Assembly: GCF_963506605.1 (NCBI RefSeq)
Contig: NC_083284.1
Location: forward strand, 69,378,001 to 69,442,000
Length of the DNA: 64,000 nt
From: Zootoca vivipara
Taxonomy: Eukaryota
Reading direction: 5' to 3'
Shown: one piece after another, positions 48,367 through 64,000 of the stretch
Layout: the number at the start of each line of letters is the position of its first letter
Position numbering within the stretch: position 1 is the stretch's first letter
Program-made: the position numbers and the translations under genes
Notes under the pieces: generated by a model
Told to the model about the DNA's origin: nothing
Database searches by the model: none
What the model saw: only the letters and a program-made list of their open reading frames with translations

Positions 48367-48524
48367 CGGATCAATTGTTTTGGGATTAAGTCTGTCACTG
48401 GGCCTGGGCTGCGGCTTAATTACAGGATCTGGAGAAGTCAATGCAGTGGGTGACGGCTTTCTTTTCTGTGTCACACTTTTCTTAGCCATTTGAGAACCTG
48501 AAGACATTCTTTTACCACTACTCC
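48367..48524 (-). CDS. PACRGL: PACRGL exon (GSSGKRMSSGSQMAKK...PRPSDRLNPKTIDP)
   Basis: 158 nt, tag/gtaagt; PRPSDxLNPKTI motif. Confidence 0.92.
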
Positions 48525-48662
48525 CTACGGCACCAAAAACAAAAAAAAAGACCCCACAGAAGAAAGCAGGGATGGTATTTACATTCTTGATGAAAAATAA
48601 TTTGTATTATAAGGCAGGTAAATAAAACATAGTTCAGCTGTCACTGAATTGTAAAGACATAC

Positions 48663-48714
48663 CACTTGCTCCATTTTTCAAACATGTGCTTTCACATTTC
48701 TTGGTTTGCTGCAT
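48663..48714 (-). CDS. PACRGL: PACRGL first coding exon (MQQTKKCESTCLKNGASG); the exon itself begins at 48741 with 27 nt of 5' UTR
   Basis: ATG 48714-48712, 52 coding nt ending in phase 1, gtatgt donor, polypyrimidine-cag acceptor at 48742-48744; the eight exons sum to 750 nt with an open frame. Confidence 0.85.
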
Positions 48715-50139
48715 ACCTCCTTGGGAGGTATGTAGAGACACCTGAGCAAAGAGAAATTGATACTGGTTGGCATCACTTTGCATTTGTATCTTGGTATCAC
48801 AAATTCTTAAGGGACTGTTCAAATAGAAGGGCTATTAAACAGAAGAAAATCTGCATTTTTAAGAGTCCTATGGACATTTGAAGAAATCCCTGCAGGGTTA
48901 ACCAAAAGGGCATCATTATCTGTAGATGGATCTTAGGCAGCTCTTTTATGGCACAAAGTATTTACAGGCAACCCCCTCATTTATGTGTGTTCAATATTTG
49001 CGCAACCGGGCACATGCACATTGCACCAAACCCGGAAGTGACCAAAAAAAGTCACCAAAAAGGGTGGAATGGTGCAGGGCGGAGCAGGATGCCTGTAGGT
49101 TTTTCCAGTGGTGATTCAAATATATGCCTTGGAATGTAACCGCATAAATGGATGGTTGCCTGTATCAACATTTCTATATCACCTATCATCCGAGGATCAC
49201 AGGGCAGTTTACAGTCTCAAAACACAAAAATCCATAACATAGAAGCAAATGAAAGTATTAATCAATGTCTAACTTTTGTAGCTACGACCCTAATCACATT
49301 TACATGGAATAATGATGTTTACCTCCCTCTTACGAATACTCAATAGTTACGAAATTAAACTGATGAGTAGGAGATTCCGGATAGGTAGTAAGCCTTATTG
49401 CCACAGTATGTGTTCCCGCCGGTGGTGTAGTTGAGTTTCCTGCATTTGGGGAAATTGCAGGCGTCAGAACCGTCCTGAGACCTGTGGGTATAGGGCGGTG
49501 AACAAATTTAATTCATAGAATCATAAAATCATAGAGTTGGAAGAGACCACAAGGGCCATCCAGTCCAACCCCCTGCCAAGCAGGAAACACCATCAAAGCA
49601 TTCTTGACATATTCATCATCATCATCATCGTCATCATCATCATCATCATAATTGGCCTAGTTATTATGAACTGACCTTTTAAAAGGGTGAAGCAAATTCA
49701 CAGAAGATACAGCTAACTGCTGCTGATAGGGCCCCTGAACATGGAGGTTCTTTCTTTTTATCACCAGTGGCTGGAGGCGCACAAAGGTGAGAGGATCATT
49801 ATGACTATTAATTAGTTTATCGCTCTATAGCCGCAGGTCTCGGGGCAGTTCACAAGATAAAATAAAAATATACAAAGGAAAACAACCCAATAAACGCCAC
49901 CCACCCACCCATTGGATATGAATCGGCCCAAGGCCAGGTGAAAGAGGAACGTTTCTGCCTGGAGCCCAAAGGTGTAACACAAATGGCTGACACCTGCGCC
50001 ACCTGGCAGGGAACCTGACGCTGCAGTAGACCAGGCTGCTCACCCAGCAGGGCACCTTCTCAGGGGCATAACAAACCTTACCGCATCCCAGGGGAGCTCA
50101 GCGCCAAGAAAATAAATGCCTTAGGCCTGGAGTCTTGTG

Positions 50140-50700
50140 TGCGCATAAGCCGCGCAAGCGCTAAACCCAGCCCCGTCTTCTTAAGCGGGGAAAGCACTCT
50201 GCACATGCTAAGGGAAGCGCACCTTCTTCAGCGCTGAGGGGAGGAAAGGCGCTCTGCGCATGCTTGGGGGGGCACCCCCCTCGTCTTCCCCGCTGAGGGG
50301 GGGGGGAGGAGAAGGCGCTCTGCACATGCTCGTGCTGCCTGCTTCCAGGACCCCGCTAGCCAAACTCCTTCGCCCGTTAACGCCGCGGCGGCGGGGGGGG
50401 GGAGACGAGCCACCTACCTGCGGGGGAGACTTACGGCCCGGGGGCGAAAAGGAAGGGCGGGAAGGAGCGCGCCTCTTCCTCGCCGCGACGCCGGCGACGC
50501 CTCCCTCGCCCGCCTGCTCCTCGGAAGGCGTGGGAATCCGCGCAGGCCGCAGCTGCCCGTCGCCGTTGTCAAGGAAACTACGGGCGCCCGGAGAGGCCAA
50601 ACTTCCTCGCAGAGAAGGCGGAGGGCGCTCTGTTCATGCTTGGAATTCCGACACGCGCGCACTCTTTGCTTTTTGTGTGAGAGCTGCGCATGGACAGGAG
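50140..50700 (-). promoter_or_regulatory. PACRGL: CpG island / PACRGL promoter with non-coding exon 1 (candidate donors after 50435 and 50418)
   Basis: Very high GC and CpG density, GC boxes, NRF1-like TGCGCATG motifs, RFX X-box-like GTTGTCAAGGAAAC at 50565-50578, minus-strand donors gtaagt and gtaggt. Confidence 0.8.
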
Positions 50701-51873: not shown

Positions 51874-52989
51874 TGTGAGGTTCCAGGTGATTACCCAGGG
51901 TTCGTGTTTCCTTTGGAATGGCAAACAGCAGAGACGTTTTTATGATATAGAGTAAAAGGTGGGCTGGGCAAGGTAACTTAGCTGGATTTGTAGCTTCTTT
52001 ACTGTCCAAATCAAATCCAAAGAGTGCTGGGAAAAAGCGACTGGTGGGGTGCCACAGAGTTTTGTCCTGAAGCCGCTGTTATTCAACATATTTATAACCA
52101 TCTGGCCTAGTGGGCGGGGCCCACGCTCACCAGCCCTTCTGAAGAGGCTCCTCATGAGGCCGGAGGAACATCACCTGGCTAATGTTTGATTGCTTGATTG
52201 ATTTTAATATGCTGTACACCGCTTTGATATTTTTATTAAAAATATAAAGTGGTATAGAAATTAAAAAATAAATATAAGAAAGGAAGGACCCGGATAGAGG
52301 AATTGAGGGGATGCTAATCAACTCTGCAAATAATAGCAAACAGGGAGGGTTAGCCAATGCCACAGAAAACCAGACTGGAGAATTGCGCCCAAACTAACAA
52401 AATGAATTTCAGTTGGGACAAGTGTAAGGTTCTGTACGTAGCCAGGAAGAAACAGCAGCACAAATATAAGATGGTGGACTCCTGGCTTGCCAGTAGCACA
52501 TGTGAAAAGAATCTAGGAGTCTTAGTAGACCACAAGTCATGAGTCAACAGTGTGGTGCAGCGGGGGGGGGGGGGGGGGACGGACTACTGCTATTCTAGGC
52601 TGCATCAACAGAAGTCTAATGTCATCTTCAAATATCTAAAGGACTGTCACATGGAAGAGGGTACAAGGAGATTCTGACTAAACATCAGGAAGAAGTTTCT
52701 GACAGAGCTGTCTGACAGTAAAACAAACTCCAACAAAAGGTGGTGGACTCTCCCATTTACCCCACTCTAACACAGAGCAACTTCCTTTGTTCTACTAAGG
52801 ACAGCATTAATGCTTCAAAAATCTTGCCTGGCTAGTTTAGGGTTGCCATACGTCCAAAATTTCCCGGACATATTCGGAATGCTGCTGTCGGAAGCAGTGT
52901 CCATGTGGAAATCACACACACACACACAAAAAAAAAAAATCTGGGAAAATTCGGACATACAGTACATGGCAACTCATGTTAGCACTGTC

Positions 52990-53350
52990 ATTTTTGCCCC
53001 CCCCCCCCAATGGGAATGCTTCCGTCCTACGGGCCTCGCTCCCACACTCGCCAGCGCCTCCAGGGCAAGCGCCCCCCCCAACGCCACCCCCACGCACATG
53101 GGCAGCACCCACTGCTCCCAACCACTGCTGCTGGCCAGAGCGGCGCATGCACGTTGCACGCGGCTTCGGCCTGCCGAACACCCGGAGGAAGCCTTCTCCG
53201 CCAATCCAACGAGCGAGCGGGCTCTCTGGACCGCCGTTAAAAGTGTGATTGGCGAGCCGCCTAGCCAATCCATCCGCCGCGGGAGGCAGGCCACGAGTTG
53301 CGTTTACCTCACAGCGATTCCTCAGCCAGTGAGGCGCTTGATTTGCTTAC
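52990..53350. promoter_or_regulatory. Second CpG-rich, promoter-like element with three CCAAT boxes and an NRF1-like motif
   Basis: GCCAATC near 53200 and 53264, GATTGGC near 53247, GCGCATGCAC near 53143, many CpGs. Confidence 0.5.
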
Positions 53351-55156
53351 GTTGCAATGTGAATGAATATAGTCGCCTATTTAATAAATATTTAGCAGGT
53401 CTACTCAGAAGCCCCACTGAGTCAAGACAGTAGCAACTTAAGCTGCTACACAACGTACATCTAAGGGCCTCCACCCTCGCAGAACTACAATTCCCAGCAC
53501 CCCTAGCAAACTACAGTTCCCAGGCTTTGGGGGAGGGGAAAGACCCATGCGCTTTAAATGTATGTGGTGTGTTAGGCAGGCTCAAGCTGCCCTTTAACAC
53601 CAAGCCAGAACTTTTATAATTCTATGTTTTAAATCCAATTTTGACCAAGTAGCTCTGATCGGAATTTGTCGGGGTTCTCTCCTTCCTGCCCATTTTACCC
53701 GCACCACCATCTTGTGAAGCGTAGTTCTGTGCAATGTCTCTACACGTGAGGGATTGAATAACCCTTTTTTGAGTTTTGGCACAAGTGTATTTGAGACCCT
53801 GACACCAACGGAATGAGAAAGGAAGATGGAAGATGGCATCAAGAAAATCATCAAGAGAACAATCAAGTTCCTTCCAAGCAGGCTTCTGGTCTCATCACGT
53901 AGAACGTATAGCAGCATAGATATATATGGGATCAGCCTAAGGGACAGTGGGCTTTTTGGCAACAGCCACCTTATAAAGAGTTTCTGACTCTGGCGTCATG
54001 ATTGTCATCATACCTTTCAACTTTGCATCCCAATAAACCAAATGATTTGTTTCCGTCTTCGAGTCTTGAGTCTGTAGTTTTCACTGGTTATGCTTCCTTC
54101 CTTGTTTCGGTGGGTTAATGGAGGACCAGGTTAGTGCTGGTGTTTTGGCATAGGATGCCCTGACCTCGACTGGATCTCCAACTTCAACATGATTTTATTG
54201 ACATATTGTTTTCCAAATTAGGCCTTGTGATTCAAAGAAAACAGAAAGAGACTGCACTGTTCTCAAGTTGTTACATTTTATGAATTATAATATATGCCTG
54301 CAGCCAGGTAATGGAAACGACTGACTTGGCTTTCTCCGTAGCTTCCCCCCCCCAACCCCCACTCGGAGCAGTGGTTGCGTGGCCTGCATTAAGACAGTCT
54401 GAGAAGTGTTGGTTAAAGGAGACAGCTGCTTTAAGAGATTTAGAAAACAAGGCACTCATTTCAGTCTGCACATCCAACATTTTAACCATAAATTTTCTCC
54501 CAAAGCAACAGACCATATTTCATTCATTTTAAGTCTACTGCAGCAACTTATATAATTGTTTAATAATAAAGTATACGTGTCTATGTCATTTTCCTTTTTT
54601 TCAGAAATTATTTACAGAAGTTGTTCAAAGGCTGCTACAGAGTTTTAAGTTATGAAATAGGAGTAAATTTGGGGCCCCTGAAAGTGGTTCAGCTTCTTAA
54701 GGAAGGCTGGACCTTTGAGGCTCAAACCAGTTGGTAAACACAGGTAAACAGAGACCAGACCAGGATTTTAAGAAAGCAAAGTGGCTGGAAGCCTGATCTT
54801 TTATTAAAATTATATGCAGAACATGGAGGGGGGTGTAGTTTATCAGTAGCAAGCGGCGCAAAGTAATATTCACAGTTTTGGGTATACAGCGATACAAAAC
54901 CTTCAAAACACATACAAAGTTTATAAAACGAATAAAAGAAAGTAAGGAAATTGATACAAGGTACAATGTTTGCACTCCAGTCACTGACACATGCATGTAG
55001 AAAGTACATTTATATCACTATTTAAACGGGAACGATTTCAAGGCGATAGGCATAGCAAGCAGAGTTCATAATTTTTATTTAGAAATCCCCTCTCCGGTCA
55101 TTAATTCTCTTATAACAATTCCCTCTTCCTGCACTCGTTGCGGATGTAAATCCGGA

Positions 55157-57033
55157 ATGGAAGAGGGCCTATGGGGGGGGGGGGAGGAGGACTTTCAAAT
55201 TGAGGGATATATTCTGCCCAAGTTAAAGAGGGCAAGGGAGCACAGTGTAGGAAGGTTTCAGGGTGGGCAGTTTCTAGGAGGGGCAAAGCTGCAATGGGGG
55301 CAAGGGTTAAGAGGGAAGACTTGGAAAGAAAGAGTCTCTTCATATAGGGAGGGCTCAGGAGGCAAGCGGGTATATTGTGGGAATGTTTCGGGGGGAGGGG
55401 GCCTGTTCAGGGATAGATTAAGGGGGGAGGGGCATATTGTGGGAAGGTTTGGGGGAGGGGCATGTTCAAGGAGGGATTAAGGTGATAAGGGGGGCATATT
55501 CAGGGAGGAATAAAGGGGGGGAAGAGGCATATTCAGGGAGGCATTAAGGGGGCATATTCAGGGAGGGGTTAAAGCGGGAAGGGGGCATATTCAGGGAGGG
55601 ATTAAGGGAGGAAGGGGACAAATTCAGGGAGGGATTAAGGGGAGGGGGCAGATTCAGGGAGGGTCTTTTACAGGGAGGGCTCAAGGGGCAAGGGGGCATT
55701 CCATGGGAACGTTTCAGGGAGGGATGGGGCATGTTGTGGGAGGGATTAAGGAGGGGGGCATGTTGAGGGAGGGTCTTTTACAGGGAGGGCTCAAGGGGCA
55801 AGGGGGCATTCCATGGGAACGTTTCAGGGAGGGATGGGGCATGTTGTGGGAGGGATTAAGGAGGGAGGCATGTTGAGGGAGGGATTAAGGGGGCATCAAT
55901 CAATCCCTGAATATGGCCCCTACCCACCAATTATCATCCCCGAGTATGCTCCCTTGCCTCCGGACATCCGCCCCGAACACATCCCCCTCCCCCCTGACAA
56001 CCCCCTGAATGCCTCCCCGAAAACACCCCCTCCCCCCTCTGAAATTGTCCCACTCCTCTGCTCCCTCTCCCCTCAGCCCATCCCTGAATATGCCCCCTAC
56101 CCACCAATTATCATCCCAGAATATGCTCCCCCGCCCACGGACATCTGCCCCAAACACATCCCCCTCCCCCCTGACACCACCCCTGAATGCCTCCCCGAAA
56201 ACACCCCCTCCCCCCAGACTCCCCCTCCGAAATTGTCCCACTCCTCTGCTCCCTCTCCCATCAGCCCATCCCTGAATATGCCCCCTACCCACCAATTATC
56301 ATCCCCGAGTATGGCCCCCGGCCCCCGGAGCTCCTCCCCGAAAATATCCCCCTCCCCCTGAGTCCCACATCGAGCGAAGGAAGGTAGCACACCAGTTCAG
56401 CTTGGGTTTTGAGACAATAACAATTATGAGCGTTAAGGTAGCCATTATTTCTCCTTGGTCCATTGACCAGCCTCAGAAATAATCAAAAGGCATTTTTATC
56501 CCCCTTTGTTCCTTCTGTTTTCACAGGAAATTGTCGGAGTGCATTGCCGGCACCTTCCCCCTCTCCCTCTAAAACCCACCCCAAATCTGCCCCCTTCCCC
56601 CCAGAAACCCTCCCTCAAAATATCCCCCTCGCCCCTCTCCTCTGCTCCCCATCTCTGCCAATCCCTGAATATGCCCCCTACCCACCAATTATCATCCCGG
56701 AATATGCCCCCCCACCCCGGACATCCGCCCCGAAAACATCCCCCTTCCCCTGAAACCCCCCTGAATGTCTCCCCGAAAACACCCCCTCCCCCGAGTCCCC
56801 CTCAGAAATTGCCCCTCTCCTCTGTTCCCTCTCTCTTCTGCCTATCCCAGAATATGCTCCCTTCCCCGCTGAAATCATCCCCAAATATGGCCCCCTGCCC
56901 CCGGAGCTCCTCTCCAAAAATATCCCCTTCCCTGCTGAGTCCCCCTCAGAAATTGCCGCATTCCTGTGCTCCTTCTCCCTCTATGCCAACCTGGAAATAT
57001 GACCCCCTAGAACAGCCCAGAACACTGGGATGA
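55157..57033. repeat. Head-to-head degenerate minisatellite: G-rich arm (to ~55896) followed by C-rich arms (55900-56365 and 56550-57000)
   Basis: GGGGCATATTCAGGGA repeats on the left versus the reverse complement TCCCTGAATATGCCCC on the right; 110-bp and ~180-bp higher-order units. Confidence 0.85.
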
Positions 57034-57044
57034 ATACGACTGAA

Positions 57045-57960
57045 CTCCCCTGGGGCAGATGTCATCTCCCTGCAAGAGACAAAAGGGGACCTGCTGGAGG
57101 AGCCATTGGCAATAGTGGAGAGCTATAACTCTTATTTCAGCTTCAGTCGCACCCGCAATAGGCTATTCAGGTGTTGCAAGATTCTGCAAGGTCAGTAGCA
57201 TCCCAGAGGCAGATGAAGAAGGCCTGTCTGGGTTGTTTGCTAAGCACGATGGCACAGTTGGTTCTTATGGCGAGACAGAGGGCTTCACAACTGAGGAGCT
57301 ACTGGCATTGGAAAGTGAGGGCCAGGCTGTGATCACCCGTCACTGTATTTGCACTTCAGAACAGCAGGAGACCACGCTGACAGTCATCAATGTGTACTGC
57401 CCTCGAGCAGACCATGAAAACCCAGAGCGTGGGGACTTCAAGCTGCGTTTCTATTACCTCTTGCAAGCTCTGGCCGAGGCACTTCTCAGAGCTGGAGGCC
57501 ATGTGGTCATCCTGGGGGACATCAACACAGCACACAAGCCTATTGACCACTGTGACCCGGGAGATCTGCAATCCTTTCAGGAGCATCCGAGGCATCGCTG
57601 GCTGGACAGTTTCCTGTGGGAGCCAGACAAGGATTCCCAGAATGGGAAATGCTTTGTCGACACGTTCCATTTTCTGCACGCTGGTCAGAGTGACGCCTAC
57701 ACCAGCTGGTGCAACGTAACCGGGTCCCGGCAGCTAAACTACGGCACCCCGCATTGACTATATCCTGGCTTTGACTAGCCTTGTCAGAGCTGCAGGATGC
57801 CCAGCTCATGCCAGAGGAGCTCCGGATGGTGGGAAAGGCTCTGTTTCCTCTAGTTCAAACCAGTCCGCTGCCCTGGGGAAGTCACTGCTGCCAGGCCCTG
57901 GTCGACCACCTCACTACAAGGCCCATGGAGAACCTTGTGTCCTGCGGACAGTGAAGAAGC
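57045..57960 (+). pseudogene. APEX2: Processed pseudogene of APEX2 (AP endonuclease 2), 5'-truncated, frameshifted and internally deleted
   Basis: Intronless run GADVISLQETK..EEPLAIVESYNSYFSFSR / GYSGVARFCK..EEGLSGLF..INVYCP..VVILGDINTAHKPIDH..LNYGT(R)IDYIL, then a jump to the zf-GRF start KSLLPGP..HGEPCVLRTVKK; +1 insertions near 57160 and 57750. Confidence 0.93.
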
Positions 57961-58732
57961 AAATTGGTTCGTGCCAGTTTCCACAGTAAGTTCAAGCCAT
58001 CAAAAACAACACACCTCTTCTTTAGATGTCTTAAAACAGATGCCCAGAGACCAACTTATATAAAATATGTTAACATTTCATTTCGAAAATGCTGTTATTT
58101 TAGTGCAAATGTAAACACTTGTTGTCAGCATGTCTAAATACAGTAAGGTAGATTTTGAAATAATTCCACAGGTGCTGCTTCAGATTCACTTTAAAAAAGT
58201 TGCAGGTGACCAGATTTGGGTAGTATTTCATTATACCATTTAAGTACTTAACAGGCATTGAAAACTAGCAATGGTACCAGTAGAATTCAACAAATGAAAA
58301 GTTTAGACAGGATTACCGTCTGACATGTCACAAGCATGGAAAAGTAACTACATGTGCCACTTTGTTAATATAACATACAGTGAGCCAGAAGCCTATAAAC
58401 TCATGGGTCTCTCTGATATACCTATACATTTAAAGGGGGTAGAAATTGGCAGTCAAGGGGCCAGATGCAGCCCCTCCATTCAGTCTGCAGAACCCCCTTA
58501 TCATCTCGGACAAGTTTTAGAGTTAAAAAAAAACCCTAGGGGGCTTTTCAAGTCTAATTTTGGGAGGGAAGAATCAGGCAGGGCTTGCATCTGGGGAGGG
58601 AAGTGCTTACCCTCTTTTCACTGTGAATCCCCCATGCCAGAATAAGGCTTGAAAACAAAGCCTTGTACTGCTGCTAATGGAGGGCTGTTTTCAATGCTAA
58701 CTGCCACTTGGGAAAATTGGCTGTTTTTAAAG

Positions 58733-58822
58733 CATAGCTGCCAAGTTTTCCCTTTTCTCGCGAGGAAGCCTATTCAGCATAAGGGAAAATCCCTTTAAAA
58801 AAGGGATAACTTGGCAGCTATG
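58733..58822. mobile_element. 90-bp hAT MITE; a truncated copy lies at 18463-18570
   Basis: TIR CATAGCTGCCAAGTT; TSD TTTTAAAG. Confidence 0.9.
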
Positions 58823-59574
58823 TTTTAAAGGAAGTACCAGCTAGGAAAGGAAGGCTTAAACTTCCCCTTCCTAATATCTATGAAGATTACACACCCACAC
58901 CTCCATCAGCTCTTTTTCCACCCTAGTGTGGTGGAGAGAAGAAAGAGTAAGAATCTGCATACATAGATGTGTGAGGAGTGTGCTATATGTGCAGTCTTGT
59001 GGTGTAGGAGAGAAAGAGCATGATTTGCCCATGGACCCTTTAATCACATACTCCAGAATTAGCCTCTCCTGCCAATGGCATACGACCCCCAAGAGGGGTG
59101 GTCAAGATGAAACATAGTCCTCCCACTGAAAAAGATTCCCCACCCATCAAATCTGAAAGCTATGATGTTCTTATTCATCCACATCCCATGTGACTCCTGT
59201 TTTATAAGGTGTGTTATTCAGGCATGTCCTACTGCCAGAAGTGTCAGCTGCTGACATCGCCCAAATTGCTCTCAACAAAAAGCAGCTGCTTGCTAAGAAG
59301 TAAACCATATGTTTTTAGAGAGGTTCCCTTCTACCTGAAGGAGTCAATAAAGGATGCACAATAAAGTGATGCCTAAGCTTGAAATTCTAAAGCACACTTA
59401 CAAGAAATAAGCTTCACTAAGCGTAGCATGGCTTCTTTCTAAGCAAGCATATATACAACCAGCCTTGTGGCACCAGAACTACGCTGAGATTGCACAATTT
59501 CACACATGATCTCAGAAATGTGATTTTGCATTCCACCACCCAGAAACCACACACTCTTCTTTCTGAAAGCTCAC

Positions 59575-59786
59575 CTTCACATTCTTCAACCCTTTCTCAG
59601 AGGCCAAGCATTTCTGAGAATTTATTGTCTGAGTGTACATTAGACACACTCGTTGTATTGCTGAAGTAATCCAATTATGTATTTATCTTCAATTTGTTCA
59701 TGCATTTTGAATTCCTTAAAAGTAGCATATAGGGATTGGAGGAGAGCCCCGAAGTCACTGTTGTTGGAGAAGTTGGTCTTAGAAAG
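59575..59786 (-). pseudogene. FBXL5: Orphan degraded copy of FBXL5 exon 2 (hemerythrin-like iron-sensing domain) with intact splice sites
   Basis: cag|[48 protein letters not shown] then NVHSDNKFSEMLGL and EKGLKNVK|gtgag in shifted frames; 212 nt versus 216 nt (72 codons) expected, explained by two 2-nt deletions. Confidence 0.9.
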
Positions 59787-60174
59787 CTGATAAGAAACAA
59801 AAGATGATCAGTTTCTTTCTGGGCTAATACTCAATAAATCATGTTATCCTCTAAAAAGATATCTGACACCATCCCACTTCCCTGGTCAAATGTGTTTCCC
59901 CTCCCCACCACAGGTGTTTCTAACTCTGATTAAGAACAAAACAAAACCTACCTGACAACACATTATTAATACAGGTAAAAAGTCCTTTAAAGTTATTTTA
60001 ACATGTGGCAAATATATCAAAACCTCAGTTTTAACTTCAGCAGTTCTGTAAATGTATTCTACATTTTTTGGGGTAATTTTAGAAAAAAGGTTTCGCTTAT
60101 AAATCTGGTAAGAGCACAAGCTTTTAAAGTGCTTTTAGGGTTGTGCTGTCGTTCAGTGCTGAGGTTCAGAGACT

Positions 60175-60220
<46 letters not shown>

Positions 60221-61258
60221 AATGCTCCCTCTAAGCTGAAGGAACCATCAGTGACCCTCAGCTATGGACTGCAAATTCATTTTGTCACAGACACCCTCCA
60301 CAACTGATGAAGTGTCTTGGGATATCCAGTCTCTGGCATCCTTTGACTCTCAACAGAGGTCATCCCAGAATACAAGGACAGAATACTGGAACAGATGAGG
60401 CTGGATGCTTCATACCTCTCTGGCCATCTCCACACATCCAGGACAGACTCAATCATTAGTTTAGGAAAGATATCACATTCAGCTCACTCTCTAAGATTTG
60501 TCAGTGCAGCTATAATGCTAGCACCAGAGCAGGCAGAAAATGAAATGTCTTGAAAAAAAAGTTCAGGGAAATCAGTTCCTACACTCAGCAGTATAGCCCA
60601 GGACGATGCTCTTCTACATCCTTCTACACTAGAAATATGTGACTATGGATTATTCTGAGGTATCAGTGTTCCCAGCCAGAGTCAAAGGACAAGCCCCAGA
60701 ACAACCACAGAAGCAACATTCAGGCAAACCTCATCACTGAGACCAGGAACATCTGGCCAGACAACAAATACTATTTCCCTACCTGGGACCCCCGGAGTAG
60801 GGATCAATGCCAATTCTGCCACTACTGTAGTATCCAGAACTCTTGTTTCTCAATTGGCACCCACAGCTGCCCTTTCCAAGACGGCTGCTGCTTGCAAGCT
60901 GCCACAACCTATCTTGAACAGTTTGTGCTTTCTCACTCCACTACCAAGATGGGAGGAAACCGCCCCCCCCCCAAGAGTGGGACACTCTCCGGGGGGGGGG
61001 GTTCCTCCCATCTTGGTAGTTCTACAAAATGTACAAAAGTGAATGCCAACGTGGAGACAGTATGAGATCACTTTAAGCTTTGTATTTGGTGTGTCTAAAA
61101 ATAACACTATGAGAAGAGCAACTGCCAAACACCACAAGCATTACCATTTACTAAAGGGAACCATTACGCCACTACCCACTGAGACTACAGCATAGCTACA
61201 GAATGGCACTTCTCTCTTTTGCAACAGGAAAGAGAAGACATAGGAGCACCTCTAACAG

Positions 61259-61937
61259 AAATATATAAAAAATACAATAAAATTGTCCAGTAGCACCTTA
61301 GAGACCAACTAAGTTTGTTCTTGGTATGAGCTTTCGTGTGTATGCACACTTCTTCAGATAGCAGGTGTCTGGAGAAGTGTGCATGCACACGAAAGCTCAT
61401 ACCAAGAACAAACTTAGTTGGTCACTAAGGTGCTACTGGACAATTTTATTATTATTCATACAGTGGTACCTCGGTTTATGAACACAATTGGTTCCGGAAG
61501 TCTGTTTATAAACTGAAGCGTTCATAAAGTGAAGCGAACTTTTCCATTGAAAGTAATGGAAAGTGGATTAATCCGTTCCAGACGGTCCGCAGAGTACTTA
61601 AACTGAAGCGTTCATAAACTGAAGCGAACTTTCCCATTGAAAGTAATGGAAAGTGGATTAATCCGTTCCAGACGGGTCCGTGGAGTACTTAAACTGAAGT
61701 GTTCATAAACTGAAGCATGGGTGTAATTGGTTCCGGAAGTCTGTTCATAAACTGAAGCATTCATAAACTGAAGCGAACTTTCCCATTGAAAGTAATGAAA
61801 AATGAATTAATCCGTTCCAGATGGGTCCACGGTGTTCATAAACCGAAAATTCATAAACCGAGGTGTTCATAAACCAAGGTTCCACTGTATATATTTCTAC
61901 TGCGTCAGACCAACACAGCTACCTACCTGAATATATA
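61259..61937. mobile_element. Penelope-derived inverted-repeat element with two opposed hammerhead motifs, interrupted by a Tc1/mariner MITE
   Basis: 11-bp TSD ACCTCTAACAG; near-perfect inverted arms ~61280-61445; hammerhead cores at 61324-61361 (-) and 61365-61402 (+, CUGGAGA variant). Confidence 0.8.
61461..61887. mobile_element. Tc1/mariner (Tigger/pogo-like) MITE with internal tandem repeats
   Basis: TIR CAGTGGTACCTCGGTTTATGAAC / GTTCATAAACCAAGGTTCCACTG; TA TSD; repeated TTCATAAACTGAAGCG units. Confidence 0.9.
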
Positions 61938-63003
61938 ACCTCTAACAGTGTTCCTCCTTCTTTCCTACACTTTTCTTCTACAGTGCAGATGAACAAGAGT
62001 GACATGAAAAGTCTGCTTGTCACCTTGAACAACAGCTGCAGGTGCTGCTGCTGCTGCTGAACATGCCAGTAGGAGGTAGGCTAAGGAACCAAGAGAGATG
62101 GGTTGTATACAGCTCAAAGGACTCAGCTAACACTGCTAAAATAATTGAGAATAGAGTTACAGAATAGGGTTGTGCGGGGGTTGCATTCTGGGTCATCACA
62201 TGCTTTGGTGGAGAAGACGCAAACCCAACCCACCGCCTTCCAGGGCTGAAATTGCCATGCACGTTGGGCGGGTGAGTGTACCTTGGTCACACACAAAATG
62301 ATCATTCCCTGTATTGAGACCCTTTACAAGCTTGATAACTGCAAACATTTCCTTGTTTATGTACAAAAGTGCATGAAATATCTAATCCAGGGGTCCTTCA
62401 TTGGGTGAGGGAGAAAAAGAAGACAGAGAAATCCTTTTGCAAATTGCAAACAATACAATTAAGGGCAAAGGTTTATTTCAGAGATTATGTAGCATTTTCT
62501 GACATAACTATGTAAGCCCTGCAAAGGCACTAATTAAAGACTAAGAATTTCAGAGGACTCCTCTTCCTCCTCTCTTCTTTCCACTCCCATATTCCAAAGA
62601 GGAAAAAAAATCAACCCAAATTGATAGTGTCCTAAGTACTGGCAGCAACAAATGACATAACTTGAGAGGATAGAAGAAGAGTTTGGATTTGATATCCCAC
62701 TTTATCACTATCCTAAGGAGTCTCAAAGCAGCTAACATTCTCCTTTCCCTTCCTCTCCCTCAACAAGCACTCTGTGAGGTGAGTGGGGCTGAGAGACTTC
62801 AGAGAAGTGTGACTAGCCCAAGGTCACCCGGCAGCTGCATGTGGAGGAGCGGAGACGCGAACCCAGTTCCCCAGATTAAGATTCTACCACTTAACCACTG
62901 CACCACAGTAGCAGGGGCAAGGTGGTGATTTAAAACACCAGAGGGGGAAGGCAAATTTAAACCACCAATTTAGATCAAGTTTCCTACTGATACTTTTCAT
63001 ATA

Positions 63004-63218
63004 CAGTTATACCTCGGGTTACAGACGCTTCAGGTTGCGCATTTTTGGGGTGCACACCGCGCCGAACCCGGAAGTACCGGAACGGGTTACTTCCGGGTTT
63101 CTGCGCTTTAGGCATGCACAGAAGCACCGAATCGCGACCTGCGTGTGCGCAGACATGGTGCTGCATGTTGTGAACATGCCTCTCGCAAGGATCATGTTCG
63201 CAACCCGAGCGTCCACTG
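63004..63218. mobile_element. Tc1/mariner MITE
   Basis: TA-CAGTTATACCTCGGGTT...AACCCGAGCGTCCACTG-TA. Confidence 0.75.
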
Positions 63219-64000
63219 TAGTACCAAAATAATAGTGTAAATATGACCAGTACACCATGTCAACTTCTAACTACAGTATCATAATATTTAATTACTACAG
63301 TGAAGCCTTACACCTATTTGTTACACCTACCTCTCATAAAAAACAAAAATGAAATACCCATGACTGAAGAAAATGTTTCAATGTGACTGTGAAAGAAAGA
63401 CGGCAGAAAAAACCACAGGAGATGGGTAAAAATACTCTGAAAGGCACGTAGGAAGGGGAAAATACAAAGGAAATGCCTTCTCTACTAGGAGCTTCTGGAT
63501 CAGAAAGTTCTGCCTAAAATGTGGAGGCTGAGTCAAAATCCCTTCAGAGAAAATGTGTGTACTTAGCCTGAGAAAAGCTGAGCTATGGAACTTCTTGCCA
63601 CAAGGAAATGTGACAAAAAACCAAATTCAAAAGTTGGATTAAATATGAGTGGAAAATGATGTCCATAACTGCGCATTGATTTTGTTAAATTTCGCTTCCA
63701 TCTGCCACCATTTGCCCTGCAGCACCATCTTGTTGCGCCTCAGTATTTTTCAGTCATCTCAAGTGGGCTCTGGGGGTTGACAACTGTACTATAGCAACAC
63801 ACACCACATGTGATCATATACAATAAATTCTGTGTATTTGGCATGCATATGGCCAAGTAAAATGTCCCCTCATCTGAAAAAAAATTATACTGCAAATAAA
63901 GTTGACCCTGAGCGTCTCTTTTCTACAAAGGCTTTCCTGTAGTAGAGCAGGGGCAGGGTGTGGGGAGGTAGTTCGGGATATACCGTACCTGTACATCTAG

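Follow-up and report, generated by a model that had tools for sequence, protein, structure and literature searches.

The window, a 64,000-nucleotide stretch of Zootoca vivipara contig C9, carries on its minus strand at positions 59575-59786 a 212-nt segment that an earlier note, made from the sequence alone, had read as exon 2 of the iron-sensing gene FBXL5. The identification is upheld. Human FBXL5 structures 3u9j and 3v5x match the first 43 residues of the segment in a structure-sequence search (E 2e-20), and both splice sites are undamaged, with a pyrimidine-rich acceptor ending in CAG and a GTGAG donor. A DNA search of the genome with this exon gave three matches, all three candidates being scored. 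We refer to these as copy A (the window copy, C9:69.4376 Mb, minus strand), copy B (C9:71.098 Mb, 1.66 Mb from the window copy, plus strand, with a 214-nt exon 2 at 96% to the window exon) and copy C (exon 2 at C9:76.005 Mb, minus strand, 216 nt, 92% to the window exon, with an open frame). Copy C is the intact FBXL5, lying 6.6 Mb from the window copy on the same contig. The earlier note had proposed that the intact gene be sought elsewhere in the assembly, and it was found at C9:76.0 Mb, along with exon 3, an exon for the F-box (Pfam PF12937, E 1.7e-18) and further exons.

A partial, unprocessed copy of FBXL5

The duplicated FBXL5 block occupies positions 57962-64000 of the window on the minus strand and runs onward to C9:69443569; its parent span is G000:C9:76003376-76011256. 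Within the window it comprises most of intron 2, exon 2 and intron 1, and copy A is collinear with copy C from 57962 to 65569, with breaks caused by repeats. About 8 kb of copy A, covering the promoter, intron 1 and intron 2, aligns to the parent at 83-91%, which bears out the earlier proposal of a duplication at the DNA level and not by retroposition. A 5.5-kb intron stands between exons 1 and 2, and the FBXL5 part nowhere has exons joined without introns in the manner of a processed pseudogene.

The exon had been described as an orphan with neither exon 1 nor exon 3. Only the second half of that description stands. Exon 1 (coding C9:69443296-69443379, equivalent to window positions 65296-65379, minus strand) and its CpG-island promoter lie 1.3-1.6 kb beyond the window end and were therefore invisible to a reading of the window only. 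Its 28-codon frame and donor are intact, and exon 1 is found in copies A, B and C alike. Exon 3 is absent, the alignment with the parent breaking off within intron 2 some 130 nt short of it, and no FBXL5 exon beyond exon 2 was seen near copy A or copy B. The observed/expected CpG ratio of the island is 0.92 in A, 1.01 in B and 0.95 in C. The island of copy A (L014:979-1569, just past the window end) differs from the parent by 14-16%, compared with 6-9% for the introns, with its CpG content kept. Beyond exon 1, as far as C9:69446397, lie an FBXL5 far-upstream piece and a second copy of a piece of intron 1. The outer part of copy A also holds an ARFGAP2-like fragment without introns; its parent exons lie on C1, and the fragment recurs at C9:71.139 Mb.

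Exon 2 of copy A is shorter than that of the parent by two 2-nt deletions, at 59598-59599 and 59651-59652 on the minus strand. Both are present as the earlier note described, and they fare differently when compared with other copies and with raw reads. The 59598 deletion is common to copy B and is therefore real; in its frame a stop arises at codon 92. The 59651 deletion occurs only in reference copy A and is contradicted by 8 of 9 RNA reads placed at ≥97% likeness, which contain the two bases (6/6 in run X21, 2/2 in X23 and 0/1 in X22). Five bases away, copy A's letter is seen in about half of the X21 reads, which suggests that this deletion is either a private allele or an error of the assembly; some of the reads may derive from copy B. 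The reported TAA at 59640-59642 is there, but it represents no independent nonsense change: the 59651 deletion shifts the frame, and this is the first stop that the shifted frame reaches. The frame of reference copy A stops after 76 residues and that of copy B after 91, in both cases ahead of exon 3. The HExxE motif is retained as stated in the earlier note (H57, E58 and E61), and H15 and H80 are kept as well. With exon 3 missing, copy A lacks the complete set of hemerythrin iron ligands, which we take to include a second HxxxE stretch in that exon.

Fusion to an intron-less APEX2 fragment

At its intron-2 end the FBXL5 block meets an intron-less fragment at 57050-57960 on the plus strand. The best solved-structure match of the fragment is an AP lyase (E 4e-73), and we take it and its parent at C16:37.476-37.486 Mb to be APEX2, a DNA-repair gene. 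Six pieces of the fragment match separate exons on C16, here joined without introns; the fragment is cut within the last exon and has no poly(A) at the cut end. The junction lies at 57960|57962, with the FBXL5 intron and the APEX2 fragment on opposite strands, and is identical in copy B. Microhomology at the junction amounts to 1-3 nt at most, which singles out no repair pathway. Copies A and B share both this junction and the 59598 deletion, and therefore descend from one chimeric duplicate.

Over 4204 gap-trimmed aligned sites the K2P distances are 3.2% for A-B, 8.0% for A-C and 7.6% for B-C, and A-B segments of 1.2-2.2 kb align at 92-95%. Copies A and B are mutually inverted, as are copy B and the parent. 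The intron-1 piece was compared in five places, which group as C, then a copy on C3, then B, then the two copies in A (A1 and A2). Of the 350 sites in this piece, 17 set all four duplicates apart from the parent, 6 group A1 and A2 with B, and 5 group A1 with A2. The 17 sites that separate all four duplicates from the parent argue for a single copying event.

In exons 1 and 2, 15 codons differ from the parent in both copies, comprising 12 replacements, one shared deletion and two silent changes. The aligned codons give no sign of purifying selection on copies A and B. The shared frameshift, the end of the frame before exon 3 and the excess of replacement over silent changes (12 to 2) are those of a sequence under relaxed selection with disabling lesions. 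Run X16, from organism B, gave solely parent-type exon-2 letters and intron-containing APEX2 contigs; this evidence consists of contigs, in which a missing stretch says nothing on the presence of duplicates. Copy A is 24 letters away from the FBXL5 contig of X16 and 31 from this genome's own parent.

A mosaic duplication family

Sequence comparison places the window copy in a mosaic duplication family. At least 10 loci belong to it, 8 of them on this chromosome end. The insertion that contains copy A spans about 51.9-68.4 kb in window coordinates. The other loci on C9 are at 67.786, 71.09-71.11, 71.139, 72.27-72.28, 74.26-74.27, 75.47 and 76.0775 Mb, with two more at C3:3.08 and C7:3.46 Mb. 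As in mosaic segmental duplications, more than 1 kb of non-repeat sequence is shared at ≥90% and the modules come from C9, C16 and C1. In a module-by-locus matrix of the 10 loci no module is present in all, the commonest being in 5-6 of 10, and module ends differ among loci. Exons 1-2 of FBXL5 are found in 2 of the 10. The loci carry broken fragments only, and the expanding, expressed gene family that marks core duplicons is not seen.

The left part of the copy A insertion is formed by module U1 (51899-53008), which recurs almost in full at C9:75.469, C9:74.268 and C3:3.079 Mb and has a relative, at 75-81%, upstream of intact FBXL5. A low-copy anonymous module follows at 53750-54471, with parts at C9:71.106, 72.279 and 76.0775 Mb, the last of which falls in the distal inversion-breakpoint interval described below. 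We had considered a solo LTR at 53.6-54.1 kb and rejected it, since 53750-54140 has only three other matches among the 40 scored of 531 candidates and is low-copy. The module at 54472-55181 matches C7:3.465 Mb (87%) and consists partly of dispersed repeat pieces. Between it and the APEX2 fragment lies a GC-skewed minisatellite (55180-57030), with related arrays at family loci B, D and F and on C7. Near 55895 its polarity flips from G-rich to C-rich, forming a fold-back; copy B repeats this switch and has a longer arm. A 60-77-nt direct repeat (77%), at window positions 52932-53008 and at L014:1568-1629, flanks a 12.5-kb core of the insertion, and the pair splits sequence that runs unbroken at C3:3.079 Mb. 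A separate segment of 2.2-2.5 kb is common to C9:74.26, C9:75.47 and C3:3.086 Mb at 95-98%, and in part to C7:3.455-3.459 Mb.

A gene-capturing Helitron-like transposon could in principle have assembled such a mosaic as its cargo. Bat Helitrons favour promoters, first exons and introns and carry retrogene fragments (PMC4224331), a bias that the lizard cargo shares, and this genome holds young Helitrons, with eight places of identical score and a 1658-aa open frame (24 matches from 33 candidates). We nonetheless regard this origin as quite unlikely. A 6.4-kb young Helitron had no match at E<1e-3 to the loci then compared, and no element sequence from the eight Helitron neighbourhoods recurs in the eight family spans compared with them, those other than J and K. 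Hairpin-plus-CTRR sites number 4 in 111,600 family bases against 16 in 328,000 background bases, a rate no higher than background, and none is at a shared end. The shared 5' TC and 3' hairpin-CTRR ends of Helitrons were not found in a comparison that covered the family copies and the young Helitron family. The lack of a universal module and the position of 8 of the 10 loci on one chromosome end also speak against capture; low copy number, local clustering and the lack of Helitron ends set the family apart from the bat elements. The young Helitrons themselves lie at C1:43.68, 43.70 and 119.24, C2:115.24, C3:101.62, C6:18.18 and 24.17, and C10:57.32 Mb. In a comparison of three copies, identity was 98.6-99.9% over about 6.4-6.7 kb, and this young autonomous family has likely been active recently.

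Gene order and a likely inversion

Copy A sits between the 5' end of PACRGL, whose first exon (50416-50563, minus strand) forms the left flank outside the insertion and is seen in RNA, and SLIT2-like 3' exons, all on the minus strand. This order matches the human order PACRGL-SLIT2. The order and orientation of PACRGL and SLIT2 are unchanged, and copy A is therefore an insertion and no breakpoint.

The surroundings of copy B and of the parent differ from this. At 71.08-71.18 Mb the order is FGFBP(+), copy B, FGFBP(+), ARFGAP2-like piece, IREB2(-), and at 75.96-76.10 Mb it is CC2D2A(+), FBXL5(-), BST1/CD38-type(+), family piece, HYKK(+), PSMA4(+). The family piece between the CD38-type genes and HYKK is 200 nt of the left module of A, at 94%. 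The order FBXL5-BST1-CD38-FGFBP is conserved in tetrapods (PMC8669677), a duck candidate list agrees with it (PMC10875613), and IREB2, HYKK and PSMA4 are neighbours in human (PMC4776066). Reversing 71.15-76.07 Mb restores both the FGFBP-CD38 and the IREB2-HYKK adjacency. A single inversion of about 4.9 Mb, with breakpoints FGFBP|IREB2 and CD38|HYKK, is therefore the simplest reading of the gene order and a likely one; it rests on one assembly, in which duplications can cause misjoins. The FBXL5 5' end lies 60-70 kb inside the distal breakpoint, and we infer that before the inversion copy B had the orientation of FBXL5 and stood at a distance of about 100 kb from it. All four PF02267 matches among nine candidates are at 76.06-76.07 Mb, with none near copy B to indicate duplicated BST1/CD38-type genes. 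Copies B and C were considered as the recombining pair behind the inversion and rejected, as an exchange between them would restore neither FGFBP-CD38 nor IREB2-HYKK.

Both breakpoint intervals (C9:71.119-71.151 and 76.070-76.082 Mb) contain family pieces, the ARFGAP2-like piece in the proximal one and the left-module piece in the distal one. With 8 loci scattered at random over the 8.4 Mb that the real ones span, 0.03% of 2 million trials hit both intervals; the test was post hoc and ignores avoidance of genes. The link to a rearrangement that the earlier note had suspected thus holds for the family, but copy A itself lies in the undisturbed PACRGL-SLIT2 interval.

The more specific proposal in that note, that an inversion by staggered breaks left the copy as its direct scar, does not survive this comparison and is in our view very unlikely. 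Staggered breaks leave inverted duplications at Drosophila breakpoints (PMC1885836), and the lizard resembles the flies in having duplicated gene pieces near an inversion, some of them inverted: an inversion is indicated near the parent, and the pairs A/B and B/parent are each in opposite orientation. The model predicts the same sequence, inverted, at both breaks; here the two intervals hold different modules and no inverted pair. The FBXL5 copies, moreover, are off the breakpoints. Copy A has kept its PACRGL-SLIT2 adjacency, a whole FGFBP gene sets copy B apart from the proximal break, and no duplicates were found of the genes between FBXL5 and the distal break.

Genes other than FBXL5 were named by sequence likeness, Pfam domains and, in one case, a structure match. 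Pfam gave no domain in 6 of 21 fragments (KCNIP4-like, two ARFGAP2-like, FKBP4-like, the first HYKK exon and FBXL5 exon 2), and the structure match of IREB2 has IRP2 best with IRP1 close behind. The proximal breakpoint interval also contains an intron-less, ID3-like helix-loop-helix fragment (PF00010; C9:71143859-71144098, plus strand), which is a third local retrocopy. The inverted segment (C9:71.15-76.08 Mb) joins the block that holds IREB2 and an FKBP4-like gene (72.285-72.303 Mb) to the CC2D2A-FBXL5-CD38 block; in human these two blocks lie on different chromosomes. The inversion would bring IREB2 to about 50 kb from copy B (C9:71.09-71.18 Mb). The product of IREB2 is a known substrate of FBXL5, and this closeness is probably a coincidence.

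Transcription of the copy

Judging by RNA reads, the minus strand is transcribed weakly across exon 2, intron 2 and the antisense APEX2 fragment. The earlier note had proposed RNA-seq as a check of exon inclusion, and exon 2 of copy A is indeed transcribed weakly, as judged from X21 reads with letters private to copy A (7/13 at 59656 and 7/21 at 59684, positions at which the likeness filter undercounts parent reads). At 59750, 38 of 42 X21 reads are parent-type and 4 are duplicate-type. Reads over the A-only part of the APEX2 fragment are without parent letters at 57121 and 57201. Runs X22 and X23 cover the APEX2 fragment almost entirely as minus-strand RNA, X23 being not cleanly stranded. These observations come from about 6% of three runs of one study, at a depth of 0.1-7.5. 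Depth is zero in the intron-1 bins and nonzero in intron 2. Exon 1 likely splices to exon 2 in copy A RNA, a reading taken from coverage alone, the joint itself not being among those listed. In run X6, which is independent of these, one contig agrees without a single difference with the intron-less APEX2 piece over 57273-57451, a stretch that crosses an exon junction, and exon 2 shows duplicate-type letters at 59643 and 59649; the duplicates are therefore real.

Read-through from the copied FBXL5 promoter into PACRGL was considered and rejected, with low power. No joint between copy A and PACRGL is among the 15 of 19 joints listed, in which PACRGL's own joints are seen, and none of the three raw RNA runs has any coverage at 53814-54214 or 49804-50204. 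The PACRGL 5' exons (48367-50563, minus strand) have alternative joints at 48522/48527-48662/48663, 48739-49321 and 49438/49479-50416/50417.

An alternative reading is that of a young functional gene, its product being either a hemerythrin peptide cut short or an RNA antisense to APEX2 with a regulatory role. Both copies keep the CpG island, the frame of exon 1 and three splice sites are intact, the five ligand residues of exons 1 and 2 are in place, minus-strand RNA covers the APEX2 fragment in X22 and X23, and the 59651 deletion is missing from most reads. Function is all the same highly improbable in the light of the 12 replacements against 2 silent changes on the duplicate side, the shared frameshift that ends the frame at codon 92, the absence of exon 3, in which the second HxxxE stretch lies, and the small share of duplicate-type reads at 59750 (4/42). 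That the copy or its lesions are an assembly artefact, or remains of a once complete FBXL5 paralog as the earlier note had also entertained, is barely credible: most reads lack the 59651 deletion and no listed contig spans the whole block, but the X6 contig and the RNA reads with A-private letters speak for real DNA, and copies A and B stop at the same intron-2 base, fused to APEX2, with no further FBXL5 exon near either.

Origin of the copy and related systems

We think it probable that copy A is an unprocessed, 3'-truncated, chimeric partial pseudogene of FBXL5 in a segmental-duplication mosaic, produced by one DNA-level duplication, fusion to a retrocopy and serial local re-duplication. The front end of FBXL5 (promoter, exon 1, intron 1, exon 2 and most of intron 2) would have been copied once and joined to a pre-existing APEX2 retrocopy via break repair or template switching. 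Re-duplication would then have yielded the C3 piece first, followed by copies A and B, and last the second piece inside A. Family members may have made the chromosome end fragile, or may have been deposited during repair of its breaks. The copied promoter likely still fires weakly. For want of an exon 3, the transcript of exons 1 and 2 would continue across intron 2 without further splicing and enter the APEX2 fragment in antisense; minus-strand AATAAA motifs, at which it might end, lie at about 55079, 54805 and 54199. A peptide made from it, 76 or 91 residues long, would be without the exon-3 part of the hemerythrin domain, the F-box and the repeats, and is therefore likely non-functional.

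Copy A is a further example of two known kinds, the unprocessed partial pseudogene and the mosaic segmental duplication. With other unprocessed partial pseudogenes it shares copied introns, splice sites and promoter, frameshifts, free replacements and a parent intact elsewhere; it differs in being fused to a processed fragment of another gene within a multi-locus mosaic. Human chimeric pseudogenes of the ANAPC1P2 and HYDIN2 type (PMC13122177) likewise have two gene pieces joined in an intron and are transcribed from an upstream promoter that was duplicated with them. In the lizard, by contrast, the partner is an antisense, intron-less retrocopy, and there is no sign of purifying selection or of a function.

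Primate mosaic blocks such as GOLGA at 15q25 (PMC6436712) and LRRC37 (PMC3530683) are comparable in their mosaic of modules, clustering on one chromosome, members at inversion breakpoints and some transcription. Relative to these core duplicons, the lizard family is smaller (0.2-16 kb), older (3-8% divergence) and non-mammalian, and has neither a universal module nor an expanding intact gene family. It is an unlikely further step that the patchwork of FBXL5 promoter, retrocopy fragments and minisatellite, as a small lizard counterpart of the primate duplicon mosaics, hopped along the chromosome end and seeded the 4.9-Mb inversion, and that the chimeric RNA it now drives from the FBXL5 promoter, antisense to APEX2, is regulatory.

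The literature searched links duplications to inversions mainly in primates and flies. It contained no report of this FBXL5 copy or locus; lacertid genome papers may list the inversion in their supplements. The exon itself is an ordinary pseudogene fragment, and its value is as a marker of a mosaic tied to both ends of a likely inversion. The locus offers a datable, testable case in a reptile in which to ask whether inversions are caused by duplications or leave them behind. In this species, reads from two transcribed or transcribable FBXL5 copies and from the APEX2 retrocopy can confound expression and variant calls.
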